Virus genome (UHGV): UHGV-0127437 | DNA: 51,462 nt | Source of the DNA: a virus | Strand: one strand, 5' to 3' | In this document: positions 1,773 through 50,667 of the stretch, one piece after another | Layout of the letters: each line of letters begins with the position of its first letter | How positions within the stretch are numbered: the stretch's first letter is position 1 | Program-made: the position numbers and the translations under genes | Notes under the pieces: generated by a model | What the model was told of the DNA's origin: nothing | What the model saw: the letters and a program-made list of their open reading frames with translations, nothing else | Database searches by the model: none

Positions 1773-2034
1773 TTATTGTATCAATGGCAGCGATCAAGTC
1801 TCTTAGAAGTACAACACGGTAAGTAACTGGCGTGAGGTGAAATTTAGTTTTGTGGGACATCATCGGCGACCTGCACTATCGAACGATCGCCAACTGGCCG
1901 CATCAGTGTCTTGCATACGCTCTGGTGAGTAAACTTGACGACCCTTCGCCTTTAACGCCCCTCTATCATGTATGTCGATCAAGTACCGCGTTAGTGCTAC
2001 ACTTGCACTCTTTCAGAATTCACTGATTTTTCAC

Positions 2035-2397
2035 ATGTTAAAGCTATTTAGTCGATATGTTTCGGTTGGTGTTGTGAACACCGCGATTCATTGGTTATGC
2101 TTTGCTGGTTTGCTTCACTTCTTTGGCGCCAGCCAGGCCATTTCCAATGTTACGGCATTTTGCGTGGCTGTAACTTTTAGCTTCTTCGCTAATGCAAAGT
2201 TTACTTTCAACTCTCAGGCTACGACCGGGCGTTACATTGCGTTCGTCGTATTCATGGGGGTTATGGCTATGCTCACTGGGTTTATCGCAGATCAACTCAA
2301 GGCACCACCGATTTTAACGCTTGTGGCGTTCTCGGCTTTCAGCCTGATCGCGGGATTTATCTACTCAAAATTCATAGTATTTAGGGATGCTAAATGA
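2035..2397 (+). CDS. gtrA: GtrA-family bactoprenol-glucose flippase
   Basis: 120-aa polytopic membrane protein ([20 protein letters not shown]...YSKFIVF) immediately upstream of gtrB with an overlapping stop/start. Confidence 0.8.
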
Positions 2398-3314
2398 AAA
2401 TCTCTCTGATCGTTCCGGTCTTCAATGAAGAGGCCACGATACCGATTTTCTACAAAACGGTTCGGGAATTCGACGAATTAAAACAACATGAAGTTGAGAT
2501 AGTATTCATCAACGATGGCAGCAAAGACACAACGGAATCAATTATCAATGCGCTTGCTGTATCCGATCCGCTCGTCATGCCATTATCATTTACCCGTAAT
2601 TTTGGCAAGGAGCCAGCTTTGTTTGCCGGGCTTGATCACGCAACAGGTGATGCTGTTATCCCTATCGATGTCGATTTACAAGACCCCATTGAAGTTATCC
2701 CGCATCTGATAGAGAAATGGCAGGCTGGCGCTGATATGGTTCTGGCTAAACGCACCGATCGTTCAACGGATGGAAGGCTAAAACGAAAGACCGCAGAATG
2801 GTTCTACAAGTTACACAACAAAATCAGCAACCCACAGATCGAAGAGAATGTGGGTGATTTCCGTCTCATGTCCCGTGAGGTTGTGGAAAACATTAAGCTA
2901 ATGCCAGAACGTAACTTGTTCATGAAAGGCGTTCTTAGCTGGGTTGGCGGAAAGACTGACGTTGTGGAATATGCCCGCGGCGAGCGCGTAGCTGGTGACT
3001 CTAAATTCAATGGCTGGAAATTATGGAATCTGGCTCTTGAAGGGATCACCTCCTTCTCAACGTTTCCGCTACGCATGTGGACATACATTGGCCTTTTTGT
3101 CGCAGGTCTGTCATTCCTGTATGGGGCATGGATGATTGTTGATAAGTTATTTTTCGGCAACAGCGTCCCTGGCTATCCGTCGCTGCTTGTATCAATACTT
3201 TTCTTGGGGGGTATTCAACTTATTGGGATCGGTGTTCTTGGTGAGTATATAGGAAGAATTTATATAGAAACAAAGAAAAGACCAAAATATATTTTGGGGA
3301 AACGCAAAAAATGA
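2394..3314 (+). CDS. gtrB: GtrB bactoprenol glucosyltransferase (GT2)
   Basis: [13 protein letters not shown]...INDGSKD...DVDLQDP is a GT2 DxD-type N-terminal domain. Two C-terminal TM helices complete the typical GtrB architecture. Confidence 0.9.
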
Positions 3315-4909
3315 GAATAACGAAGATTTTTATTGTCACTTTGACATTCATTGTTATAAGTCTGCCTTTATTTGGTCACTTCTGGACGTCAGGAGACCTG
3401 TCCGCCCATTATTATAGGCTCATATCTATAAAACATCAGTTGGAAACACATCAGTTTCCGATGTATTTCGATTTCGTAACTGATAACATGCAAGGGTATG
3501 GATATTCATGGAATTTATTTTACCCTCCACTGACAGCTTTTCTGTATACAATTATAGAGCTATTAAGCTTTAATAGCATTGATGCTGTTATACAGTTAAA
3601 AATAAGCATAGCAATAATCTCAGCAATAAATTTTTTTATTATGTATTTTTCTGTAAAGAGAATTTTCAACTCTTCACAAATTGCTTTTATCTCAGCGATA
3701 CTATCCGTTACATCATACTATTTTCTATACAATCAATACACTCGCTCTGCATTTCCTGAAGCTCTTGCTATGAGCTTTGTACCCTTGTTACTTTTGGGGC
3801 TATTTGGGTACATCAACAACAATAAAAATAAAATTTATTTACCATTGTCGTTTTCGTTAATACTGTTAACAAATATACCCGCAACCATTGTCACTCTTAT
3901 ATTTATAACTTTATTTGTAGTAATCTTTCATAAGAAATTCATAGAACAATATCGAGATGTAATTTTACATTCATTTATAGTTATTGGTATAACGTCATTT
4001 TTTATACTTCCGCTTTATTACACATCTAAAGGTGACATTTACGCCTTTACATCTATGAAATCAAGTTATGAATCAATGTGGAAGCTAACCATACCAGTTA
4101 TTAACTTAATCATACCGACAAGAACAACGGAGTACCCTTTCAGACTTATTACACCGGGATGGGTTATAATGGGGCTAATAATAGCCTTGTTCACCATGAA
4201 AAAAAATGGTGATAAATTATCTTCCATGCTTGATGGGCACCATAAGGTGGCTATTTCAATATCTTTATTATTCATAATAATGTGCTCACAAATGTTCCCA
4301 TGGAATCACATACCAAAACAGCTTCCGGTACTTAATTTCATTCAGTTCCCCTGGCGAATGATGCTTATATCATCGCCAATCCTGTGCATTTTCGCTGCTC
4401 TAACTCTTGTCAAAATCGCCCAAGAATCCCAAGGGAAGAAAGGTTTAATTTATATTGTCATATTTTCATCAATTATTCTTTCTATGTATGCGTCAACAAG
4501 TCCATTCGATAACAAGGCGAGACTGCCATGGTATCAAGTATATCTTGATTACATGCCTAACAACATGGCGAGAAAAATAAATGAAATTAAAAAAACCAAA
4601 AAAGAACCTATAGTGTTAAGTGGAAATGGAAGTATTGTAAGCGCTAGATTAACTGGCGGCTATCCAACATATAAATATATTTGCATGGATGATTGTACAA
4701 TTCAACTTCCTGTAATTCCTTATAGAGGATATGAGGTAGAAGGAGTTAAATCTTTTTCTGAAAACAACATGGGGTTGATGCAGGTTAACGTATCAAAAGG
4801 GAGTGGGCAAATAAATTTAAAATATAATCCAATTATTATCTACATATCATACGGAATTACGTTAATCACAATAATATTGTTGTTATATTTTACAAGAAGA
4901 AAATCATGA
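3311..4909 (+). CDS. GtrC-type serotype-specific O-antigen glucosyltransferase (large polytopic membrane protein)
   Basis: 532-aa, very AT-rich, multi-TM ORF in the third position of a gtrAB cassette. The call rests on position and architecture, not on sequence recognition. Confidence 0.6.
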
Positions 4910-31454: not shown

Positions 31455-31661
31455 TCACCCCCAGCCTTTTTGTCGGAAGGTTCTCGGCGTCCGCGCCGGA
31501 CGTTCGCACTCTTGTAATTTCGCGCTGACTGTCCAGGTCAGGAAATCAGGATTGAGGCTCTTTTTGGCTCTGACGCCGCGAGACTGATAATCGGCAATCA
31601 GGCGCTCTGCCTGCTCGGTGGTGCATTCCGTGTGGTGAAAATATGAATACTTCATCGCCAT
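31455..31661 (-). CDS. Hypothetical nin-region protein
   Basis: 68 aa starting at the ATG at 31661 (TGATG overlap with the upstream stop). The longer track ORF starts inside the upstream gene. Confidence 0.45.
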   Translation of the reverse strand: MAMKYSYFHHTECTTEQAERLIADYQSRGVRAKKSLNPDFLTWTVSAKLQECERPARTPRTFRQKGWG

Positions 31662-32260
31662 CACCCCGCAAAGCTCATAAGCTGGGCGGCGGCGTTCTCG
31701 GCCTCTTCCCTGCTGTTGAAGGTACGGGACAAGATCCAGCGCCACAGGACATCGAGTGCGGCCTTATACAGGTGCTGGAATTCGGTTTCGTCCATACTGG
31801 CGAACGCGATGCTGCGAGGGTGTTTGCGGAGCGTGCCATCTGGTAACTGTATGGCGTCAAAGTGACCGGCCTCGACAGTTACCCAGGCGCGGTAAGCGTC
31901 AAAGGATTTGCACAGGCTTATGCCGTTCGTGATACGGCGACTGGCGATCTGCTCCAGATACTGCTCGGCAGCGTCCAGCAGAGCGCTTTCATTGCCGCCG
32001 TATGAGGCAAGGAATCTGGCATAACCGTTAACGAGTTTGCGTTCATTCGAAGAAATAGCGCCGCCGGTTGGTTCCCAGTATTCGAACCCGAGATTCAGGA
32101 GCGCAAAGAAACGGCGATGAAACGCAGGATTGCGTACAAGTTTAAAGTCGGCAACCAGAACGGAGCCGAGCTTGCATTTTGATTGCAGAAAATCACTGGT
32201 CTCCGGCGTCGCGGGGATCAGGATTCCTGTTGACTGCTTAATGAGTTGTAATTGCGCCAT
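31661..32260 (-). CDS. DUF1367-like phage protein
   Basis: 199 aa. MAQLQLIKQSTGILIPATPET...FHRRFFALLNLGFEYW resembles a conserved lambdoid nin-region family. Confidence 0.55.
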   Translation of the reverse strand: MAQLQLIKQSTGILIPATPETSDFLQSKCKLGSVLVADFKLVRNPAFHRRFFALLNLGFEYWEPTGGAISSNERKLVNGYARFLASYGGNESALLDAAEQYLEQIASRRITNGISLCKSFDAYRAWVTVEAGHFDAIQLPDGTLRKHPRSIAFASMDETEFQHLYKAALDVLWRWILSRTFNSREEAENAAAQLMSFAG

Positions 32261-32297
32261 GGTTGTTCACTCCGTGGCGCAGCAGGTTAACGGCTGT

Positions 32298-32546
32298 TCA
32301 GACCGTTGATTTCATATTATCAGAAGGTGGCGTTACCCGGTAGCCGAGACGGCGAATAAATTGCATAAAGCCATTGGGAGTAAAGACTTCTTCATCATCC
32401 AGCAAAGGCCGCATAGAAACCATGCCATTGACGCGATAGATAAGATGCCTGCCCGACGAAGGAAAGCTAAACACCACGCAGCCGTCAGACCGTCTTACAA
32501 TGTCATACCAGTTATCTTCTGACGTTTGCAAAGCTGAATTACTCAC
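32298..32546 (-). CDS. Small protein downstream of dinI; candidate LexA-controlled antirepressor
   Basis: 82 aa with GGGAGA 5 nt upstream. It lies in the same transcription direction as dinI, 117 nt downstream, with only a weak hairpin between them. Confidence 0.4.
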   Translation of the reverse strand: MSNSALQTSEDNWYDIVRRSDGCVVFSFPSSGRHLIYRVNGMVSMRPLLDDEEVFTPNGFMQFIRRLGYRVTPPSDNMKSTV

Positions 32547-32663
32547 ATTCTGTTCTCCCTTCGAGCGACATACAGACGCGGTTAAAAATTGTCGGCAGCA
32601 GCATCAAAGGGATACGCAAATTGCGGTATTCTGAAAAAATGCGCGCCAGCCCCAAGCGCAATG

Positions 32664-32897
32664 TTAGTAAAACCAGTCGTCGGCGCTTTCCCAGGTCTCC
32701 TGAAGAATCTCCTCAATGCGCTGCTTGTCCCCTTTTTCACCCCCCAGAATACTCAGGCCATCAGCCCCGGCGCGGCGAATTGTAAGTTTGACCCCTTCAT
32801 AGTTCTGGCTGAGCCTGCGTAACAGTTCGGCTTCTAATGCTGGCACTGCGCCATCAGGAAGTTTCTTTGTTCGATCAATAGTTAACTCAACTTTCAT
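32664..32897 (-). CDS. dinI: DinI-family DNA-damage-inducible protein
   Basis: MKVELTIDRTKKLPDGAVPALEAELLRRL...GGEKGDKQRIEEILQETWESADDWFY closely parallels E. coli DinI (...KEDKQRISEILQETWESADDWF). The ATG at 32897 has GGAGG upstream. Confidence 0.9.
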   Translation of the reverse strand: MKVELTIDRTKKLPDGAVPALEAELLRRLSQNYEGVKLTIRRAGADGLSILGGEKGDKQRIEEILQETWESADDWFY

Positions 32898-32915
32898 AGT
32901 GGCCTCCATTGCGTA

Positions 32916-32935
32916 TACTGTATTTTTATACAGTA
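32916..32935 (-). promoter_or_regulatory. LexA (SOS) box upstream of the dinI-like gene
   Basis: TACTGTATTTTTATACAGTA is a perfect CTGT-N8-ACAG palindrome 19 nt upstream of the dinI ATG. Confidence 0.9.
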
Positions 32936-33006
32936 TACCTATAAAACGAAATGATCAACGTTTTAAGAGCACGAATTGTTAACCCATAGACACAAATTTC
33001 AGGCGT

Positions 33007-33028
33007 AAAAAAACCCGCCGAAGCGGGT
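33007..33028 (-). terminator. Intrinsic terminator ending the upstream two-gene cassette
   Basis: On the minus strand: ACCCGC-TTCG-GCGGGT followed by TTTTTTTAC. Confidence 0.75.
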
Positions 33029-33173
33029 TTAATCATTAAGAGCATTTGCATCTGTGGCAGGTGAGGAGTTCATATTGTGCTCGCATTTAAGTCCCCTTAA
33101 ATGCGCAGAAGCCGCAATCGGGTGTTCAGTCCGACTGCGATTTAATTATTGCTGGTTGATTATTAAAAATCGA

Positions 33174-33437
33174 TCAACACTGATATGGAGGAATTTGGTA
33201 CCTTGCGATCGCGTCTTGAGGATTTTCAGGGAAAACACCATCTCGAGTTGCGATTAAGTATGTTGCCCCACCAAAAAAATGTCTAACAACAAAATAATCT
33301 TTCATAATCGGCGTTTGTGTCTGGTCTGAAGCAAGAGGCTCAGTTGGCAACTGAATTATGGACTCTCCGTTATAGTTCTCAAGTGTTGCAATCTTATATT
33401 TACGGACTTTATCGCAAGCTAAAAAATGAGTGCTCAC
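33174..33437 (-). CDS. Hypothetical 87-aa protein (second gene of an overlapping pair)
   Basis: Its GTG start forms a GTGA overlap with the upstream stop and is preceded by GGAGGAGGAG. The gene is AT-rich. Confidence 0.5.
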   Translation of the reverse strand: MSTHFLACDKVRKYKIATLENYNGESIIQLPTEPLASDQTQTPIMKDYFVVRHFFGGATYLIATRDGVFPENPQDAIARYQIPPYQC

Positions 33438-33664
33438 TTCTCCTCCTCCTGTTTTAAGTATACCGAATCGCTACCTTGAAGTAAGGTTATCGGTTGCTCG
33501 GAGGAAATCTTTACCCTCCACTGGGTAATTTCGAAAATGCTCTTGCTTCTTAGTGATGACAAACATGCTCTTGCAACCGTTTTACGTGATACTTGGACGG
33601 CAAGGCCAGTGTTAACCTTGCCTCGCTCATTCTGTGACTTTGCCGCACTGTTAAAATCACTCAT
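33434..33664 (-). CDS. Hypothetical 76-aa protein (first gene of an overlapping pair)
   Basis: ATG with GAGG 7 nt upstream. The gene is AT-rich and I recognise no family. Confidence 0.5.
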   Translation of the reverse strand: MSDFNSAAKSQNERGKVNTGLAVQVSRKTVARACLSSLRSKSIFEITQWRVKISSEQPITLLQGSDSVYLKQEEEK

Positions 33665-33826
33665 TGGCTACCTCGCAATCGTTCAGTATACGTCCCAATA
33701 CAACCCTAGGTGTTTGTTTTGTCTAGAAACGAAACCCGTAGTAAACTTTATTAAGTTGCAAACAAAATTCACCGCCTTAATCTAAAAACTTAAAACCAAT
33801 TTAATTACAAAGGTTCATTACAGTAA

Positions 33827-34393
33827 CTATATGCTCAAGATAATAATATCACGCCCCAATAACACACTTACAATTGCGGGCCAATGACTAAAAATGAATA
33901 CAACCAAAGAGATGAGACATATTACAAAGATAATAATGCATAACCACTTCATTGAAAGGTATAATAACTCACCTCTTTTCACTCGCTTCCACTCTTTTTT
34001 TAATACATTATGGCTTGCCATGGTGAAATCATCGATATCTTCTTTTAAATCTGAAGAAGGTGTTCCAGAAGATACTTTAACATTAAGTAATTTAATGGCA
34101 TCTCTTAGAACAGTTTCTTCTCTTGAAGGTTTACTATGATTGAGCCTGAGATAAATTTCTGATTGAACTACTGTGATCCCTTTGTATGCAGATTTTCGTT
34201 CTTCATCTGAAACTTCCGAGTCTCTTCTCAATACATCATAAAATCCAAGCAGGTTTGAAAGAGCTTGCCTTAATTCAGAGATCCATGCCTGACGGAACTC
34301 AGATGTTTTTAGTTCCTTAGTAATAACAAGACTAATCATCGCGCCAATTGCGGCTAAAAATGCTATAATTACAGCAATGACAGGTTCATTCAC
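33827..34393 (-). CDS. Membrane protein with N- and C-terminal TM helices flanking a ~130-aa helical domain
   Basis: 188 aa with a GTG start. TM segments are VIAVIIAFLAAIGAMISLVI and LCIIIFVICLISLVVFIF. It is very AT-rich and divergent from the next operon. Confidence 0.55.
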   Translation of the reverse strand: MNEPVIAVIIAFLAAIGAMISLVITKELKTSEFRQAWISELRQALSNLLGFYDVLRRDSEVSDEERKSAYKGITVVQSEIYLRLNHSKPSREETVLRDAIKLLNVKVSSGTPSSDLKEDIDDFTMASHNVLKKEWKRVKRGELLYLSMKWLCIIIFVICLISLVVFIFSHWPAIVSVLLGRDIIILSI

Positions 34394-34495
34394 TTTTCTT
34401 ACCCCTAAAATAATTAGCCTAAAAGCTCCTGAAATCAGAATATCTAATCTTACTGGATATAAATTTAAAGATAGACTTTAAAGCCAAACCTAGTA

Positions 34496-34504
34496 TGTTA
34501 GAAT
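34496..34504 (+). promoter_or_regulatory. Extended -10 promoter element (TGtTAGAAT) for the membrane-protein/methyltransferase operon
   Basis: TG-n-TAGAAT lies 50 nt upstream of the ATG at 34555, with TTTAAA about 16 nt further upstream. Confidence 0.4.
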
Positions 34505-34554
34505 AACCTTTTAACAAGAAGTTTGTCGACATTTTAACGTAACCGAGAAGTAAA

Positions 34555-35136
34555 ATGAACGCTAACTCACAGCCAACGCCAGATCAAGAAATCAAGATCG
34601 AGGTCATCCGCTGGCATCAAAAACTCCAGGAAATCACCTACATCGAAGCTGGTCAACACATGCGTGCTTTGAACCAACTGATGTGGCAGATTCCAAGTCT
34701 GGTAATCGCCATTAATGGTGGGCTCTGGTATGCTGCTACACTAGTTAATGAAGCCTCACTTTGGATGATTTTTGCTTTTTTAACAGTTTTCGACCTGCTC
34801 ACTATTTGCACGCTTTTTCGACTTAGGGTTCTGATAGGAAAAAAAATAACCAAACAAAATGATATTGAAGAACTATCGAAAAATAGCATACTTCAAGACC
34901 TTAGTAATAAATCCGGCATAATAATCTCACCTACCCCAGCTCCTAAAAAAGAGAGCAAGTTCATTGTAGTTGGATGCTGGACCATATGCTTATTGCTCTG
35001 CGCTATTATTAATTTTCATGGCTCATTTAATCCGTCGATATTTTCAAAACCTAGCGAAAACAATAAGTCCGAACAAAACACAACTCACCTCATCTGTGTT
35101 TCTAAGACAGCACCCACAAATGGAGAAATAAAATGA
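34555..35136 (+). CDS. Three-TM membrane protein of unknown function
   Basis: 193 aa with GAGAAG upstream. Two adjacent TM helices follow an N-terminal amphipathic helix, and a third TM lies near residue 135. It is AT-rich. Confidence 0.6.
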   Translation: MNANSQPTPDQEIKIEVIRWHQKLQEITYIEAGQHMRALNQLMWQIPSLVIAINGGLWYAATLVNEASLWMIFAFLTVFDLLTICTLFRLRVLIGKKITKQNDIEELSKNSILQDLSNKSGIIISPTPAPKKESKFIVVGCWTICLLLCAIINFHGSFNPSIFSKPSENNKSEQNTTHLICVSKTAPTNGEIK

Positions 35137-35738
35137 CCACATGGAAATTTTATGATGACAATGCCTTACGTTTATTTAATGACTATCAATCCCTAAATTT
35201 TAAAGATATATTTTCTGACGTTGAATCCTACTTCCTTGCTTCCCGCGGAGATGCTCTGGACGTAGGTGCTGGTTCTGGAAGGGATTCTGCTGCTTTATTT
35301 AAAATGGGCTACAATGTAACAGCTGTAGAGCCAAGCGATAACATGCGAAATCTTGCGGCCGAAAATCATAAGCACTGTGATATTACTTGGGTCAATGATT
35401 CATTGCCTGAACTAAGAAAGATCACTCAATCACTAAAGACCTTTGACCTTATAATTGTTAGTGCAGTCTGGATGCACCTAAATGAAAACCAGCAGGAGAG
35501 GTCGTTATTTACTCTATTCAATCTTCTATCCGCCAATGGAGTTATGATCATTACATTGCGATTAGGGCCAGCCGAACCCGATAGACAAATCAGTGTGATT
35601 TACACAGAAGATTTAATTGCTCTTTCAAAAAAATTAGGGCTAACGGTTGAATATATTAGCCCTGTCAATACGGATAGTTTTAATAGACCATCCGTTACTT
35701 GGCAAAAAGTGGTTTTATCTAAAAAAACCACTTCATAG
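35133..35738 (+). CDS. Class I SAM-dependent methyltransferase (small-molecule/protein type)
   Basis: Motif I is ALDVGAGSGRDSAALFKMGYNVTAVEP and post-I is DLIIVSAVWMHL. There is no DPPY/NPPY DNA-MTase motif. It has an ATGA overlap with the upstream membrane ORF and GGAGAA as SD. Confidence 0.75.
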   Translation: MTTWKFYDDNALRLFNDYQSLNFKDIFSDVESYFLASRGDALDVGAGSGRDSAALFKMGYNVTAVEPSDNMRNLAAENHKHCDITWVNDSLPELRKITQSLKTFDLIIVSAVWMHLNENQQERSLFTLFNLLSANGVMIITLRLGPAEPDRQISVIYTEDLIALSKKLGLTVEYISPVNTDSFNRPSVTWQKVVLSKKTTS

Positions 35739-35744
35739 ATGCCA

Positions 35745-36989
35745 TTACTCACAAAGCCCATAACGTGATGAACAGACCTCGGTATTCAGGCTTGATTTGA
35801 CCAAGTCGTAGACTTTCCCCCCGCGACCTGTTTTGGCCCACTCCACAACTTCATCAACACTTGGCGAGTTCAGGTTTGCGCGAGGTCCATAGAACCCAGA
35901 CCAATCAATATGCTGCACCTCAGGTTCTAACCCATAGAGCTGCACATTTCTACCAAGGGGCAGGTCAAACGACTTCATCCAGCGCTGGTTTATCTCGCCA
36001 ACACTCATCCAGTGAACCCAGCGAGACGTTAGACGAACCTTCAGCTCCCACTCTTTGTGCTTCTCAATATGCTCCGGCCAGCGCGAAAATGTCTCAGCAA
36101 TTTCTTCTTTGTTACACAGCACGCAATTCATACAACCGACACGTGAGGCTCCCTGCGTGTAAAGCGGGTTTGGCGATATCCCGAAGTATTTGTGGAGCGC
36201 GAATACATCTGTGGCCGTCCACTGGTGAATGGGAAGGAAGTTATACAAAAAATCCGGGTCACGCTTGTCAGTGGAGAAGCGCTCATAGCTGGCTCTCTTT
36301 GATGACTCATCTGCCCGTACACCAGACCACTGGACGACCACGTCGCCATCATCCAGCATTGGTTGCAGAGCTTTATCAAAGGCGATCTGAATTTTGAGCT
36401 CATCGGTACAGAATCGGTCGCGAAGCATCGGAAATTTACCATGCAACAGTGCGCAGTCTAGAAAGCTATTTCCGCTTGGATGCATAACAGACAGAGCAGC
36501 ATCCAGCGCAGTTTCGAATTCAATTCCCCAACGCTCAGCAGTACGCAGCCAGGCCTGCCCAAACGCTGTATCGGAGCGGCCGAGTGAAGGCATAACAACA
36601 CCCCTATATGCCCCCATACGAATGGCCTGACGCTTAACCCAGTTCTTCTGGATGTATCCTCGGCGGCGTTCAAAATCAACCTCGGTATATATCCGCTTAA
36701 CAACCTGAACTGGCGCGCATCCAATCTGTTCATGGATAGTTTTTGCGAACTGTACGGTAAGCTCGTGTTCATTATCTGTATCAGCCATAACAGCCTGAAC
36801 TCTACCGCCAAACAATGCATGGGCAACTGCCAGAGTGGCCGTGCTGTCCTTTCCTGCTGAATAATTGACGACGATTTTGTGATCATCAGGGATGCGGAAT
36901 TCAGTGAGGTAGCGATTATAGGCCAATCCAATTTCGCGAATTTTTTCGCTGATGTCGGTCGGTGCAATAATCATTGCTGCGTTGCTCAT
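35745..36989 (-). CDS. PAPS-reductase-family PP-loop ATP pyrophosphatase (DndC/SspD/IbrA-like)
   Basis: 414 aa. PP-loop VVNYSAGKDST, plus the CysH-type C-terminal signature PIHQWTATDVFALH...NPLYTQGASRVGCMNCVLC. Confidence 0.75.
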   Translation of the reverse strand: MSNAAMIIAPTDISEKIREIGLAYNRYLTEFRIPDDHKIVVNYSAGKDSTATLAVAHALFGGRVQAVMADTDNEHELTVQFAKTIHEQIGCAPVQVVKRIYTEVDFERRRGYIQKNWVKRQAIRMGAYRGVVMPSLGRSDTAFGQAWLRTAERWGIEFETALDAALSVMHPSGNSFLDCALLHGKFPMLRDRFCTDELKIQIAFDKALQPMLDDGDVVVQWSGVRADESSKRASYERFSTDKRDPDFLYNFLPIHQWTATDVFALHKYFGISPNPLYTQGASRVGCMNCVLCNKEEIAETFSRWPEHIEKHKEWELKVRLTSRWVHWMSVGEINQRWMKSFDLPLGRNVQLYGLEPEVQHIDWSGFYGPRANLNSPSVDEVVEWAKTGRGGKVYDLVKSSLNTEVCSSRYGLCE

Positions 36990-40042: not shown

Positions 40043-40157
40043 AGCTATGCCTCCCTTGCCTGGTGTTTTGAAAAACTCTTTGTCATAATGACCTCGTGAT
40101 TTCGCCTGGAATTACACCGAAGGCCGTCTGTGTTGGCGCACAGCGGTCTTCACCCTT

Positions 40158-40421: not shown

Positions 40422-40964
40422 TCACATGACACCCGGCGCTATGGCCGCGATACCACTCAGAACCTGAACGACAGCATCACCCGGCAACATATTCAGCAGA
40501 TGCTCAATCCCTTCCCTGACCTCTTTCACCAGCTGATGCTTTGGCGCATTCAGCATTACGGCCTGTTTCGCCTCGCTGATTTCCTTCTCCATCGCTGCAA
40601 AACGCGTCATGAAACAATCCTGTCCGATAAGACGCCCACGAAATTCCATCGGCAAAACAGCCAGGATTGCAGGAGTCAGCTGGCGGATGTTTTCGCGCGC
40701 ATATCCGGTATCACTGTCCAGCCAGCGGAAAAGCTTCTGCCGCTTACGGCTCAAGTCATCAGGAAAATCCAACCCGGCGCCGCCCTGCCGTTCCCATTCT
40801 TCAACGATGATCCCGGCGACTACGTCCTGGTTGTCCAGCGATGCCGACCACGCACGAACGGCAGCACGAATCTGGTCATGCTTATCCGCCGGATCAGGCT
40901 GATTGCGATTTATCATCGTGGCCGGAGGAAACCCGGTATTTTGTTGAAATGAAATTGAATGCAC
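40422..40964 (-). CDS. YdaT-family protein (functional CII analogue in Rac/CP-933P-type immunity regions)
   Basis: ...EEWERQGGAGLDFP...LFRWLDSDTGYARENIRQLTPAILAVLPMEFRGRL parallels E. coli YdaT (...EEYLRQGGGELP...YHRWLKGETKTQREKIQKLIPAILAILPRELRHRL). The GTG start lies 2 nt after the cro stop. Confidence 0.7.
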   Translation of the reverse strand: MHSISFQQNTGFPPATMINRNQPDPADKHDQIRAAVRAWSASLDNQDVVAGIIVEEWERQGGAGLDFPDDLSRKRQKLFRWLDSDTGYARENIRQLTPAILAVLPMEFRGRLIGQDCFMTRFAAMEKEISEAKQAVMLNAPKHQLVKEVREGIEHLLNMLPGDAVVQVLSGIAAIAPGVM

Positions 40965-40966
40965 GG

Positions 40967-41200
40967 TTACGCCCTCGCTTCCTGCGCCGGTAATCCATCC
41001 GTTGGGTTCGGATACAGATCAGGGCGCAATTCGTGAGGGGTAACACCGGTTATGCTGTGAATTTTTAATATGTAATCTGGCGGCACAATGCCTCTGTCGC
41101 GATGTTTCCAATGGCTAATTGACATACTGGTTACACCAAGTGCCATGCTTAACTTTCTCGCTGAACCAGCAGCCTTAATTGCTTTATCAAGTGCTGTCAT
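40967..41200 (-). CDS. Cro-like / YdaS-type HTH regulator
   Basis: 77 aa. The HTH is ARKLSMALGVTSMSISHWKH. It is the first gene of the rightward (here minus-strand) early operon and has AGGAGA as SD. Confidence 0.75.
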   Translation of the reverse strand: MTALDKAIKAAGSARKLSMALGVTSMSISHWKHRDRGIVPPDYILKIHSITGVTPHELRPDLYPNPTDGLPAQEARA

Positions 41201-41227: not shown

Positions 41228-41256
41228 AGTAAACCACAGATTTATATTTCAAGCAA
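41228..41256 (-). promoter_or_regulatory. PR candidate (TTGCTT-N17-TTTACT) with operator OR-a (41228..41246) covering the spacer and -10
   Basis: It has the same geometry as PL: -35 element, 4 nt, then a 19-bp operator whose last 6 nt form the -10. The OR-a plus-strand sequence is agtaaaccacagatttata. Confidence 0.5.
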
Positions 41257-41274
41257 TATTCAATTTATTGAGTG

Positions 41275-41293
41275 TGTAAACTAACCATTTACA
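41275..41293. promoter_or_regulatory. Operator OR-b (tgtaaactaaccatttaca)
   Basis: 19-bp palindrome TGTAAA-N7-TTTACA, 47 bp from OR-a and 9 nt upstream of the repressor ATG. Confidence 0.55.
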
Positions 41294-41301
41294 ATGAGAG
41301 A

Positions 41302-41685
41302 ATGAGAAAAGAAGAACCCAACAAAGCATTGATAGCGCGACTCAATGAGGTCTATGCCAGAGGCATTACCAAAGCAGATATGGCGCGAATAGCCGGAGTC
41401 TCGCCTCAGGCGGTCAATAGCTGGTTTAAAAAAGGCGTTATTAGCAAAAAATCAGCACTGGCTATAGCCGATGCTGTTGGCGTTTCGATCGCCTGGCTAC
41501 TCGGGGAAGATGTCGGCGAGAAAGATGGTATGAAGCCCGACGAGCAGCGCCTGCTGGAACTCTATCGCCAGTTGCCGGAAGAAGAGCAGCAGAACATGTT
41601 GCGGATCGTGTCTCTGCGCCTTAAGGAACTCGACGAGCTGTACGCCAAGTACATGGGACGGCGGATTAAGGGTGATGCGGAATAA
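41302..41685 (+). CDS. Prophage repressor (CI-like HTH) lacking an S24 autocleavage domain
   Basis: 127 aa from the ATG at 41302. The HTH_3-type segment is ITKADMARIAGVSPQAVNSWFKKG, followed by a short helical C-terminus. It is divergent from cro. Confidence 0.75.
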   Translation: MRKEEPNKALIARLNEVYARGITKADMARIAGVSPQAVNSWFKKGVISKKSALAIADAVGVSIAWLLGEDVGEKDGMKPDEQRLLELYRQLPEEEQQNMLRIVSLRLKELDELYAKYMGRRIKGDAE

Positions 41686-49165: not shown

Positions 49166-49381
49166 ATGTCACAGGTAATTTTTAACGAAGAGTGGGTTGT
49201 TGAGTCCAGACTTACCGAAAGAACAGGACTTACTGAAGGACAGATTAAAAATTATCGCCAGAAACTATGGGTTGAAGGTGTTCACTTCAAGCGCCTTACT
49301 GCGCTTGGACAGACTGACAACTCTAAAGGTCTGCTTTGGTACAACTACCCGAAGATTAATCAGTTAGTTCAGGATGCTTAA
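49166..49381 (+). CDS. xis: Excisionase-like protein (DUF1233/e14-type)
   Basis: 71 aa directly upstream of int and overlapping it. EWVVESRLTERTGLTEGQIKNYRQKLWVEGVHFKR resembles e14-type excisionases. Confidence 0.65.
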   Translation: MSQVIFNEEWVVESRLTERTGLTEGQIKNYRQKLWVEGVHFKRLTALGQTDNSKGLLWYNYPKINQLVQDA

Positions 49382-50667
49382 TGAAATACCCGACTGGTGT
49401 TGAACTGCATAACGGAAAAATCAGGATCACATTTATCTATCGCGGCATTCGTTGCCGCGAAGTTCTCCAGGGTTGGGTTGTCAACAGTAGCAATATTAAA
49501 AAAGCGGGCAATCTGCGCGCGGCAATTGTGAGTGAGATACAACTCGGTAAGTTCGACTACGCAGATCGTTTCCCGGAATCAAAGGCTCTTAAGAAATTTT
49601 CGTCCACAAAACGGATCTCCACATTCAAAGAACTGAGTGATTTTTTTACAGATACAAAGTCACTGGAGGTATCTGAAGCCACTTTGCTATCCATCACATC
49701 AGTCGTTAACACCCTGAAACGAGTCGTGGGCGAGAACACACGGCTGGTTGATATTCAGCACGCAGATATTCTGAATTACCGCAAAGAACTCCTGACCGGG
49801 GAGGTTTTCAACCCTTCAATGCCAAACCGCATCAAAAATGGGCGCGCGCCCTCAACAGTCAATAAACAGATGGCTGTTTTATCAGAAATGCTGAAGCTTG
49901 CAAACCGAAGCCAGTTTATATTGCATGCTCCTTATGAAGGAGTGTCGAGACTCAAGTTATCTAAAAATGATCCCGATCCACTTTTACTTCATGAGTACCA
50001 GGCACTGATAGCCGCCCTTCCCCGTAGCCAGGCATTAATCATCATTATTGCAGTGCATACGGGGATGAGGCCGGGCGAGATATGCGCACTGGCATGGGAA
50101 GATATTGATTTGGTAAAAGGTGAAATCCACGTATCCAGAAATTTGACGAACAAGCGAGTATTTGTACCCCCTAAAACAGATGCCGGGATAAGGACGATAA
50201 CGTTGCTGAAACCTGCTCATGATGCTCTGCTGGAGCAATACGAAATCACCGGGAACAGTCCAAAACAGGAAATTAAGTTTCATCATCGTGAGATCGGAAA
50301 AACTGAGCAGCAATATCTTCGCTTCGTTTTTTCACCGACATCATACTCGTCAACGAAAGGCGGTTACTTTTCCAAGGACTCGATTTCCTATGGCTGGAGG
50401 CGTGGAACTAAACTTTCAGGTATACGTGAGCGCAATCCATATCAGTCGCGTCACACATATGCCTGCTGGACGCTGATGGCCGGAGCGAACCCGTCGTTCA
50501 TTGCCAGCCAGATGGGGCATGAAGATGCGCGTATGGTGTACGAGGTTTACTCCAAGTGGATTGGTGACATGAACCAGGATCAGGTCAACATGCTGAACAA
50601 TCAGATGCCGACAGCACTGCCCCCAGGACGCCCCCACGGGCGAGGGAGTATGAAAAAAGTCATTTAA
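49381..50667 (+). CDS. int: Tyrosine integrase (lambda-Int family with N-terminal arm-binding domain)
   Basis: 428 aa. Catalytic-region motifs are HTGMRPGEICALAWEDID and SRHTYACWTLMAGANPSFIASQMGHEDARMVYEVYSKW. Confidence 0.9.
   Translation: MKYPTGVELHNGKIRITFIYRGIRCREVLQGWVVNSSNIKKAGNLRAAIVSEIQLGKFDYADRFPESKALKKFSSTKRISTFKELSDFFTDTKSLEVSEATLLSITSVVNTLKRVVGENTRLVDIQHADILNYRKELLTGEVFNPSMPNRIKNGRAPSTVNKQMAVLSEMLKLANRSQFILHAPYEGVSRLKLSKNDPDPLLLHEYQALIAALPRSQALIIIIAVHTGMRPGEICALAWEDIDLVKGEIHVSRNLTNKRVFVPPKTDAGIRTITLLKPAHDALLEQYEITGNSPKQEIKFHHREIGKTEQQYLRFVFSPTSYSSTKGGYFSKDSISYGWRRGTKLSGIRERNPYQSRHTYACWTLMAGANPSFIASQMGHEDARMVYEVYSKWIGDMNQDQVNMLNNQMPTALPPGRPHGRGSMKKVI

Follow-up and report, generated by a model that had tools for sequence, protein, structure and literature searches.

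The closest described relatives of the locus treated here are the induction systems of the Gifsy prophages, whose repressors remain uncleaved when the prophage is induced (Lemire, Figueroa-Bossi and Bossi 2011, PMC3121763). In these phages a dinI homologue is found about 1.3 kb past the replication genes, next to a LexA box that a terminator-like palindrome precedes. The genes follow each other in the order dinI, antirepressor, irsA, and the antirepressor, a small protein with a GUG start, binds the repressor and suffices for induction (PMC3121763). Two of these antirepressors, GfoA and GfhA, each inactivate both of the heteroimmune repressors GfoR and GfhR, and deletion of dinI or irsA has no effect on induction; conserved dinI-irsA regions with GfoA homologues were already noted in Citrobacter, Escherichia, Klebsiella and Enterobacter (PMC3121763). 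Here we analyze an open reading frame (ORF) of 82 amino acids (aa) at positions 32298-32546 of the UHGV virus genome UHGV-0127437 (51,462 nucleotides (nt); this whole stretch of DNA is called the window below). A first-pass annotation made from the sequence alone had pointed to the Gifsy work and proposed this ORF as a candidate antirepressor. PMC3121763 indeed describes LexA-controlled antirepressors next to dinI and short repressors that escape cleavage, and the proposal is supported by the termini of the predicted protein, by the layout of the operon and by a comparative survey. We put the probability that the ORF encodes a LexA-controlled antirepressor of the resident repressor at about 0.86. 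The module would then be the SOS-induction module of a lambdoid prophage of the Gifsy-1/Gifsy-3 type, i.e. an ordinary member of a characterised system known since 2011.

The comparison with GfoA (Gifsy-1 of S. Typhimurium ATCC14028) was based on primer sequences printed in PMC3121763 (pp866, le117, le175, le163 and pp867), which cover only the termini of the gene. The 5' end of gfoA (pp866, le117, le175) reads ATG/GTG-AGTAATTCAGCTTTGCAAAAG and encodes MSNSALQK, the corresponding sequence in the window being GTGAGTAATTCAGCTTTGCAAACG (MSNSALQT), and the stretch (A/G)TG AGT AAT TCA GCT TTG CAA is identical in 20/20 nt. At the 3' end (le163, pp867) gfoA reads ...CGTCGTCTCGGCTACCGGGTAACACCACCTTCTGATATA, encoding RRLGYRVTPPSDI followed by the stop, while the window ORF ends with RRLGYRVTPPSDNMKSTV and the stop. 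The C-terminal stretch RRLGYRVTPPSD is identical in both proteins, and the two sequences part at a 1-nt indel just before the stop, where an extra A in the window turns GAT-ATA-TGA into GAT-AAT-ATG; the C-terminus in the window is five residues longer (SDNMKSTV vs SDI). As both termini match the primer-deduced GfoA, the ORF is, on sequence grounds, a GfoA orthologue. It matches phrog_340 (E=1.4e-20) and belongs to a family of 38 homologue clusters with 16 invariant and 14 nearly invariant columns; a Salmonella homologue (P0001) that carries the GfoA N-terminus is 93% identical to it, and gp49 of phage mEp237 is 98% identical. The good Shine-Dalgarno (SD) sequence and the orientation shared with dinI, both remarked on in the first-pass annotation, are present, the GTG start being placed behind AGGGAG. 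In 9/30 loci, including the window (32543-32548; the others are L004, L008, L018, L023-L026 and L034), an ATGTGA start-stop mini-ORF overlaps this GTG, and the GTG start and the overlap might throttle translation of the antirepressor ORF.

A comparison with both GfoA and GftA, the antirepressor of Gifsy-2, had been suggested, and of these only GfoA turned out to be a close relative. BLASTP detected no significant pairwise similarity between the window ORF and GftA (L001, 3161-3382; E=0.72). At the profile level a remote similarity was found (hhalign probability 47%, E=1.9e-4, 50 colinear columns; PHROG cross-hit E=0.022), in agreement with PMC3121763, where GfoA and GfhA are called "more distantly related" to GftA. 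Like the window ORF, GftA has a GUG start and lies between dinI and irsA in an operon with a LexA box and a near-identical spacer between dinI and the antirepressor gene, but it belongs to PHROG 4847 rather than 340, and it targets GtgR/GftR, another repressor subfamily.

The coordinates of the features are collected in Table 1. The operon runs on the (-) strand in the order terminator, promoter, LexA box, dinI, a spacer of 117 nt, the 82-aa ORF, 37 nt and a DUF1367 gene. The dinI product belongs to the DinI family (Pfam PF06183, E=1.6e-26, profile positions 1-63 of 63); translation probably starts at ATG 32897, which lies 6 nt behind GGAGG and corresponds to the 77-aa call made also in related contigs, rather than at the upstream ATG 32909. 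The product of the third gene matches DUF1367 (E=1.1e-94) and is 88% identical to the STM1020 product of Gifsy-2. The layout of dinI, ORF and DUF1367 agrees with the Gifsy operon feature for feature (PMC3121763), which supports the antirepressor reading. The likeness to the operons of GfoA and GfhA (Gifsy-3) extends to the terminator, the LexA box, the GUG-start ORF with its primer-deduced termini, irsA, and a short partner repressor that has only a helix-turn-helix (HTH) domain and a similar C-terminal tail.

Table 1. Predicted features of the SOS operon, the immunity region and the neighbouring cargo genes in the window
Feature	Position	Strand	Basis
irsA homologue, DUF1367, 199 aa, third gene of the operon	31661-32260	(-)	Pfam
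Predicted GfoA-type antirepressor gene, 82 aa, GTG start	32298-32546	(-)	gfoA primers, homologue family, PHROG
Shine-Dalgarno sequence AGGGAG of the antirepressor ORF	32555-32560	(-)	sequence read
Terminator-like hairpin (GCGC..GCGC stem) with six-T run	32632-32660	(-)	terminator scan
Phage dinI homologue, 77 aa, first gene of the LexA-controlled operon	32664-32897	(-)	Pfam DinI
Predicted LexA box TACTGTATAAAAATACAGTA, palindromic	32916-32935	letters as on (-) coding strand	sequence and motif scan
Putative sigma-70 promoter	32930-32958	(-)	sequence read, conserved geometry, Gifsy work
Predicted intrinsic terminator AAACCCGC-TTCG-GCGGGTTT with T-run	33007-33030	(-)	sequence read, RNA folding
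HolE/theta-like ORF	33434-33664		phrog_1105
Predicted membrane protein	33827-34393
Opposite-strand gene pair including an S-adenosylmethionine (SAM) methyltransferase	34555-35738	(+)
3'-phosphoadenosine 5'-phosphosulfate (PAPS)-reductase-like protein, 414 aa	35745-36989
cII-like gene after the cro-like gene	40422-40964		PHROG matches
Cro-like gene (YdaS-type HTH), divergent from the repressor	40967-41200	(-)	PHROG matches
Prophage repressor of the GfoR/GfhR family, 127 aa, HTH only; presumed antirepressor target	41302-41685	(+)	Pfam

The perfect LexA box that had been reported upstream of the dinI homologue is present without mismatches, and TACTGTATAAAAATACAGTA is the only zero-mismatch occurrence of TACTGT-N8-ACAGTA that the motif scan found in the 51-kb window. 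Its arms are perfectly palindromic and it agrees with the idealised TACTG(TA)5CAGTA at 18/20 positions. The shorter pattern CTGT-N8-ACAG occurs twice in the window against 0.5 expected by chance, once in this box and once at 40128-40143, where the GC-rich spacer is unlike that of a LexA site. A putative promoter has its -35 element TTGATC at 32953-32958 and its -10 element either at TATACT (32932-32937, 15-nt spacer) or at TACTGT (32930-32935, 17-nt spacer), and either -10 candidate overlaps the box; the geometry recurs in Gifsy-2 (TTGAAT-N15-TATACT) and in related loci. The sequence of the promoter region differs from that of Gifsy-1. Directly upstream lies a Rho-independent terminator, so that the predicted LexA site is preceded by a terminator as in the Gifsy phages; Gifsy-2, mEp237 and several Citrobacter loci have the same element ahead of their boxes. 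This terminator would keep early-right transcription from upstream out of the dinI operon.

The description of the resident repressor as a protein of only 127 aa with an HTH and no S24 domain also agrees with our analysis. Pfam matches of 41302-41685 are confined to HTH_3 and the HTH of Phage_CI_repr; there is no Peptidase_S24 match in Pfam and only about 60 residues follow the HTH, which is not the composition of a self-cleaving repressor of the lambda CI/LexA type. An in-frame GTG at 41272, 30 nt before the ATG, would extend the protein to 137 aa, still too short for an S24 domain. This alternative start would add MCKLTIYNER, a peptide with similar counterparts in related contigs (L030 has MYKPNIYNDP, and L037 has a 139-aa call); a parallel is offered by gfhR, for which two in-frame starts have been reported to be functional. 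The only S24 protein among the window ORFs scanned is a UmuD-like one (1318-1743). The repressor stands beside a cro-like and a cII-like gene, an arrangement found also in related contigs. The intergenic region between repressor and cro contains a direct repeat, GTAAACCACAGATTTA (41229-41244) and GTAAACTAACCATTTA (41276-41291), with 75% identity and 47-nt spacing, whose copies are candidate operator half-sites.

The C-terminus of the window repressor, AKYMGRRIKGDAE, resembles those of GfhR (AKYMSRRIKGEGA) and GfoR (EKYMKGRIRTRED), the latter two deduced from primers le101 and le103, and by sequence we assign the protein to the GfoR/GfhR family. The HTH part, and hence the immunity specificity, differs (MRKEEPN... 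vs MKEKTHQ... and MTKVKHH...). Repressors encoded beside orthologous ORFs begin with MKEKTHQ, the GfoR N-terminus (several cases), or with M(E/M)KVKHH; among the latter type is gp39 of mEp237, which starts with MEKVKHH, near MTKVKHH of a gfhR primer, and whose C-terminal half is about 90% identical to the window repressor. Across 24 repressors adjoining GfoA-type ORFs the mean pairwise identity is 61% (minimum 41%) in the HTH part vs 85% (minimum 67%) in the C-terminal 54 residues. This tail of about 55 residues (GEDVGEKDG...LRLKELDELYAKYM) is common to at least five HTH/immunity types from Citrobacter, Salmonella, Enterobacter, Leclercia, Atlantibacter and other genera. Its conservation agrees with the published finding that GfoA and GfhA also act on the heteroimmune GfoR and GfhR (PMC3121763), and suggests that the tail may be the surface recognised by the antirepressor. 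More speculatively, and at somewhat less than even odds, it could be a common docking module through which one antirepressor would fire heteroimmune prophages in trans throughout the group, with the GTG start and the spacer hairpins setting the induction threshold.

In a survey of one genome per species, full-length homologues of the ORF were obtained in 28 enterobacterial loci, from genera that include Citrobacter, Enterobacter, Raoultella, Kluyvera, Leclercia, Atlantibacter, Siccibacter and Silvania, to which mEp237 and Gifsy-2 were added. A CTGT-N8-ACAG box is present about 110-390 nt upstream of the ORF in all 28 loci as well as in mEp237 and Gifsy-2, and elsewhere in the approximately 560 kb of surveyed loci only 17 such boxes occur (about 0.03 per kb). 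A truncated homologue in Mangrovibacter (L031), counted outside the 28, has no box upstream. In 21 loci dinI lies between the box and the ORF, with a dinI-ORF spacer of 105-117 nt or 41-42 nt, and seven loci lack dinI; since in these the box persists, about 110-190 nt upstream of the ORF, it appears to travel with the antirepressor gene and not with dinI. A GTG start behind a G-rich SD sequence was found in 29/29 loci with an assigned ORF start, and DUF1367 follows the ORF in nearly all loci. Of the 28 loci, 20 encode a repressor of the window type 5-9 kb upstream of the ORF, beside cro and cII; in seven to eight the immunity region is outside the 10-kb flank. All six long contigs with an identical ORF also contain a window-type repressor (127-163 aa, HTH_3 only) beside cro and cII.

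Based on these observations and on the Gifsy work we propose the following course of events. In the lysogen, host LexA would occupy the box, which overlaps the -10 element, and with the upstream terminator blocking read-through the dinI/gfoA-like/irsA operon would remain silent. After DNA damage, RecA would be activated and LexA would cleave itself, and transcription of the operon would lead to synthesis of the 82-aa GfoA orthologue, with translation probably being kept low by the GTG start and possibly by hairpins in the dinI-ORF spacer. The antirepressor would bind the 127-aa repressor and lift it off the operators between repressor and cro, whereupon the early operons would fire. As the repressor would stay uncleaved, induction should be reversible in principle once LexA is replenished. 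From experiments on the Gifsy phages we carry over by analogy that the antirepressor binds the repressor in an A2B2 complex, that the repressor then no longer binds DNA, and that the antirepressor is both sufficient and necessary.

Several points weigh against our proposal. The match to GfoA covers 7/8 N-terminal and 12/12 C-terminal residues, together with close Salmonella homologues, and not the whole of GfoA. The SOS promoter falls below the threshold of a consensus promoter scan, and its assignment is based on the geometry conserved across loci and on the Gifsy experiments. Between dinI and the ORF, just behind the dinI stop, stands a terminator-like hairpin (32642-32660, followed by six T). 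Finally, GtgR is insensitive to GfoA (PMC3121763), i.e. the specificity between antirepressors and repressors is not universal; because of this, the sensitivity of the HTH variant in the window is deduced from the conserved tail.

This last point leads to an alternative that we regard as quite unlikely, namely that the ORF encodes a GfoA homologue with another target, which either acts only in trans on co-resident heteroimmune prophages, as FsoA of Fels-1 does on Gifsy-2, or is redundant. The published specificities are indeed patchy, as GtgR ignores both GfoA and GfhA, and FsoA has no apparent role in the induction of its own phage (PMC3121763). Moreover, GfoA-type ORFs accompany other kinds of repressors in two of our loci: L009 from Enterobacter quasihormaechei (1062-1670) encodes a lambda-CI-like repressor (33% identity over 216 aa, E=1e-30) and L021 (751-1029) a GtgR-like one. 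In these two the LexA-box/dinI/GfoA-like operon forms a mosaic with other repressor types, and there the antirepressor may act in trans or be redundant. The window repressor, however, has the tail of the GfoR/GfhR type, which is the repressor type paired with the ORF in 20/28 loci and in 6/6 contigs with the identical ORF. No route through an S24 repressor and no other antirepressor was seen in the window, which was not scanned exhaustively for one.

Very improbable, in our view, is that the small ORF encodes an SOS accessory that works with DinI or irsA, for instance by modulating RecA or recombination, while the repressor is inactivated in some other way. Such a role would be in keeping with a protein that databases call hypothetical. 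Pfam assigned it to no family (and hence to no DinI, ANT, KilA-N or BRO domain), a search of PDB sequences with the family profile gave nothing below E=0.7, and the AlphaFold2 model (four strands and one helix, pLDDT 75) had no Foldseek match in the PDB below E=1, so that the fold offers no functional clue. Yet both termini match GfoA, which is sufficient for induction, the Gifsy dinI and irsA deletions leave induction unaffected, and loci without dinI still have the box upstream of the ORF.

That the ORF escapes SOS control altogether, because transcripts stop at the hairpin after dinI (Table 1) and only dinI is regulated by LexA, is scarcely credible given that the stem is short (6 pairs, 7-nt loop), that Gifsy-2 shares the spacer and is nevertheless induced from the promoter upstream of dinI, and that the ORF encodes a strongly conserved protein behind a conserved SD sequence and GTG start. 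The hairpin itself is conserved in Gifsy-2, mEp237 and Citrobacter loci, and the whole dinI-antirepressor spacer is nearly identical in the window and Gifsy-2 despite their differing downstream genes. In Gifsy-2, replacement of the LexA-box region upstream of dinI by PBAD made induction arabinose-dependent (PMC3121763), and in Gifsy-1 of strain D23580 one single nucleotide polymorphism in the -10 element of the dinI promoter abolishes phage production, which is restored by its repair (PMC5322425). These results, combined with the near-identity to the Gifsy-2 spacer, indicate that transcripts from the dinI promoter reach the antirepressor gene through the spacer. By this analogy full termination after dinI, which the first-pass annotation had listed as an outcome that would speak against an antirepressor, is unlikely; the hairpin may rather be a partial attenuator between the two genes. 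The "weak hairpin" that the same annotation placed at about 32575-32600 is not terminator-like, being the apex of a long imperfect hairpin without a T-run, whose fold does not surpass that of shuffled sequences (z=-0.84). The consensus fold of the spacer is weak (RNAalifold, -4.7 kcal/mol). On the (-) strand UCGAAGGG (32557-32564), within which the antirepressor SD lies, has a potential pairing partner in CCCUUUGA (32604-32611); this putative anti-SD:SD helix could form in 96% of cells over 12 loci, but with no compensatory changes, and shuffled sequences do equally well. Four loci have a dinI-ORF spacer of only 41-42 nt.

Other known antirepressors resemble the predicted GfoA orthologue less closely. 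FsoA of Fels-1 differs in that its regulator is the Fels-1 repressor rather than LexA. Tum of coliphage 186 and AntC of N15 are likewise LexA-repressed antirepressors that bind a non-cleavable repressor, and Tum even has a DinI-like half; Tum, however, is a 146-aa fusion with the antirepressor part before the DinI part, whereas in the window dinI comes first and the two genes are separate, 117 nt apart. No sequence similarity was detected between the window ORF and Tum or AntC. A single polypeptide of the Tum type was rejected, since dinI and the ORF are separate and the latter has no DinI domain, and so was a large antirepressor of the P22 Ant or KilA type, as the ORF matched no Pfam family. 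The nearest phage relatives are mEp237 (gp48-gp50 and gp39) and Salmonella phage SEN34, whose DNA is 82-83% identical to the window across promoter, dinI, ORF and DUF1367. Their genes are annotated only as hypothetical or HTH proteins, we found no functional study of them, and gp39 is of the GfhR-like immunity type.

The window looks like a complete lambdoid prophage, with an integrase (49381-50667), RecE-like and RecT-like genes, the immunity region, replication genes O and P, a nin region with RusA and Q, structural genes, a tail spike and gtrABC-like genes. Its host is probably Citrobacter koseri, not Salmonella as for GfoA: the exact 82-aa protein is ABV13015.1 / A8AHQ2_CITK8 of this species, and an NCTC assembly (L039) is 99.8% identical to window positions 22298-42545. 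A second LexA-like box, TACTGATTATATATACAGTA (1753-1772, one mismatch), lies just upstream of umuDC-like genes on the (-) strand (50-1743), which comprise the UmuD-like gene (1318-1743, Peptidase_S24) and a UmuC-like gene (50-1315) and flank the prophage beside gtrA/gtrB/gtrC-like genes (1972-4909) and the tail spike. Between the replication genes and the SOS operon there is a block of cargo genes (33434-36989; Table 1). The space between the SOS promoter and the ORF 33174-33437 contains a non-coding element on the (-) strand (33047-33160). Its identity to the annotated "IR4" of phage phi80, and to HK225, HK639 and Enterobacter phages, is 86-94%, and it is absent from the other GfoA-type loci. 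The predicted fold (z=-2.65) consists of a hairpin of 9 bp closed by a GGGG loop, after which comes the terminator, and the element has a sub-threshold match to Rfam rsmX (28 bits vs a gathering score of 56); an Rfam scan of 32200-33200 gave no match at the gathering score. This element could be a small RNA or a module of a 3' untranslated region.

The biological import of these findings is small, because the Gifsy mechanism was established experimentally in 2011, and their value lies in the correction of annotations: the exact protein is present on 408 contigs and is always named hypothetical. The survey adds some modest leads on the induction threshold, namely the box that follows the ORF even without dinI, the GTG start found wherever a start was assigned, and the conserved repressor tail behind a variable HTH. 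Recognition of this "hypothetical" protein, found on hundreds of contigs and in mEp237 and SEN34, as an antirepressor predicts that induction of these prophages is routed through LexA and reversible, and that there may be cross-talk among co-resident prophages.

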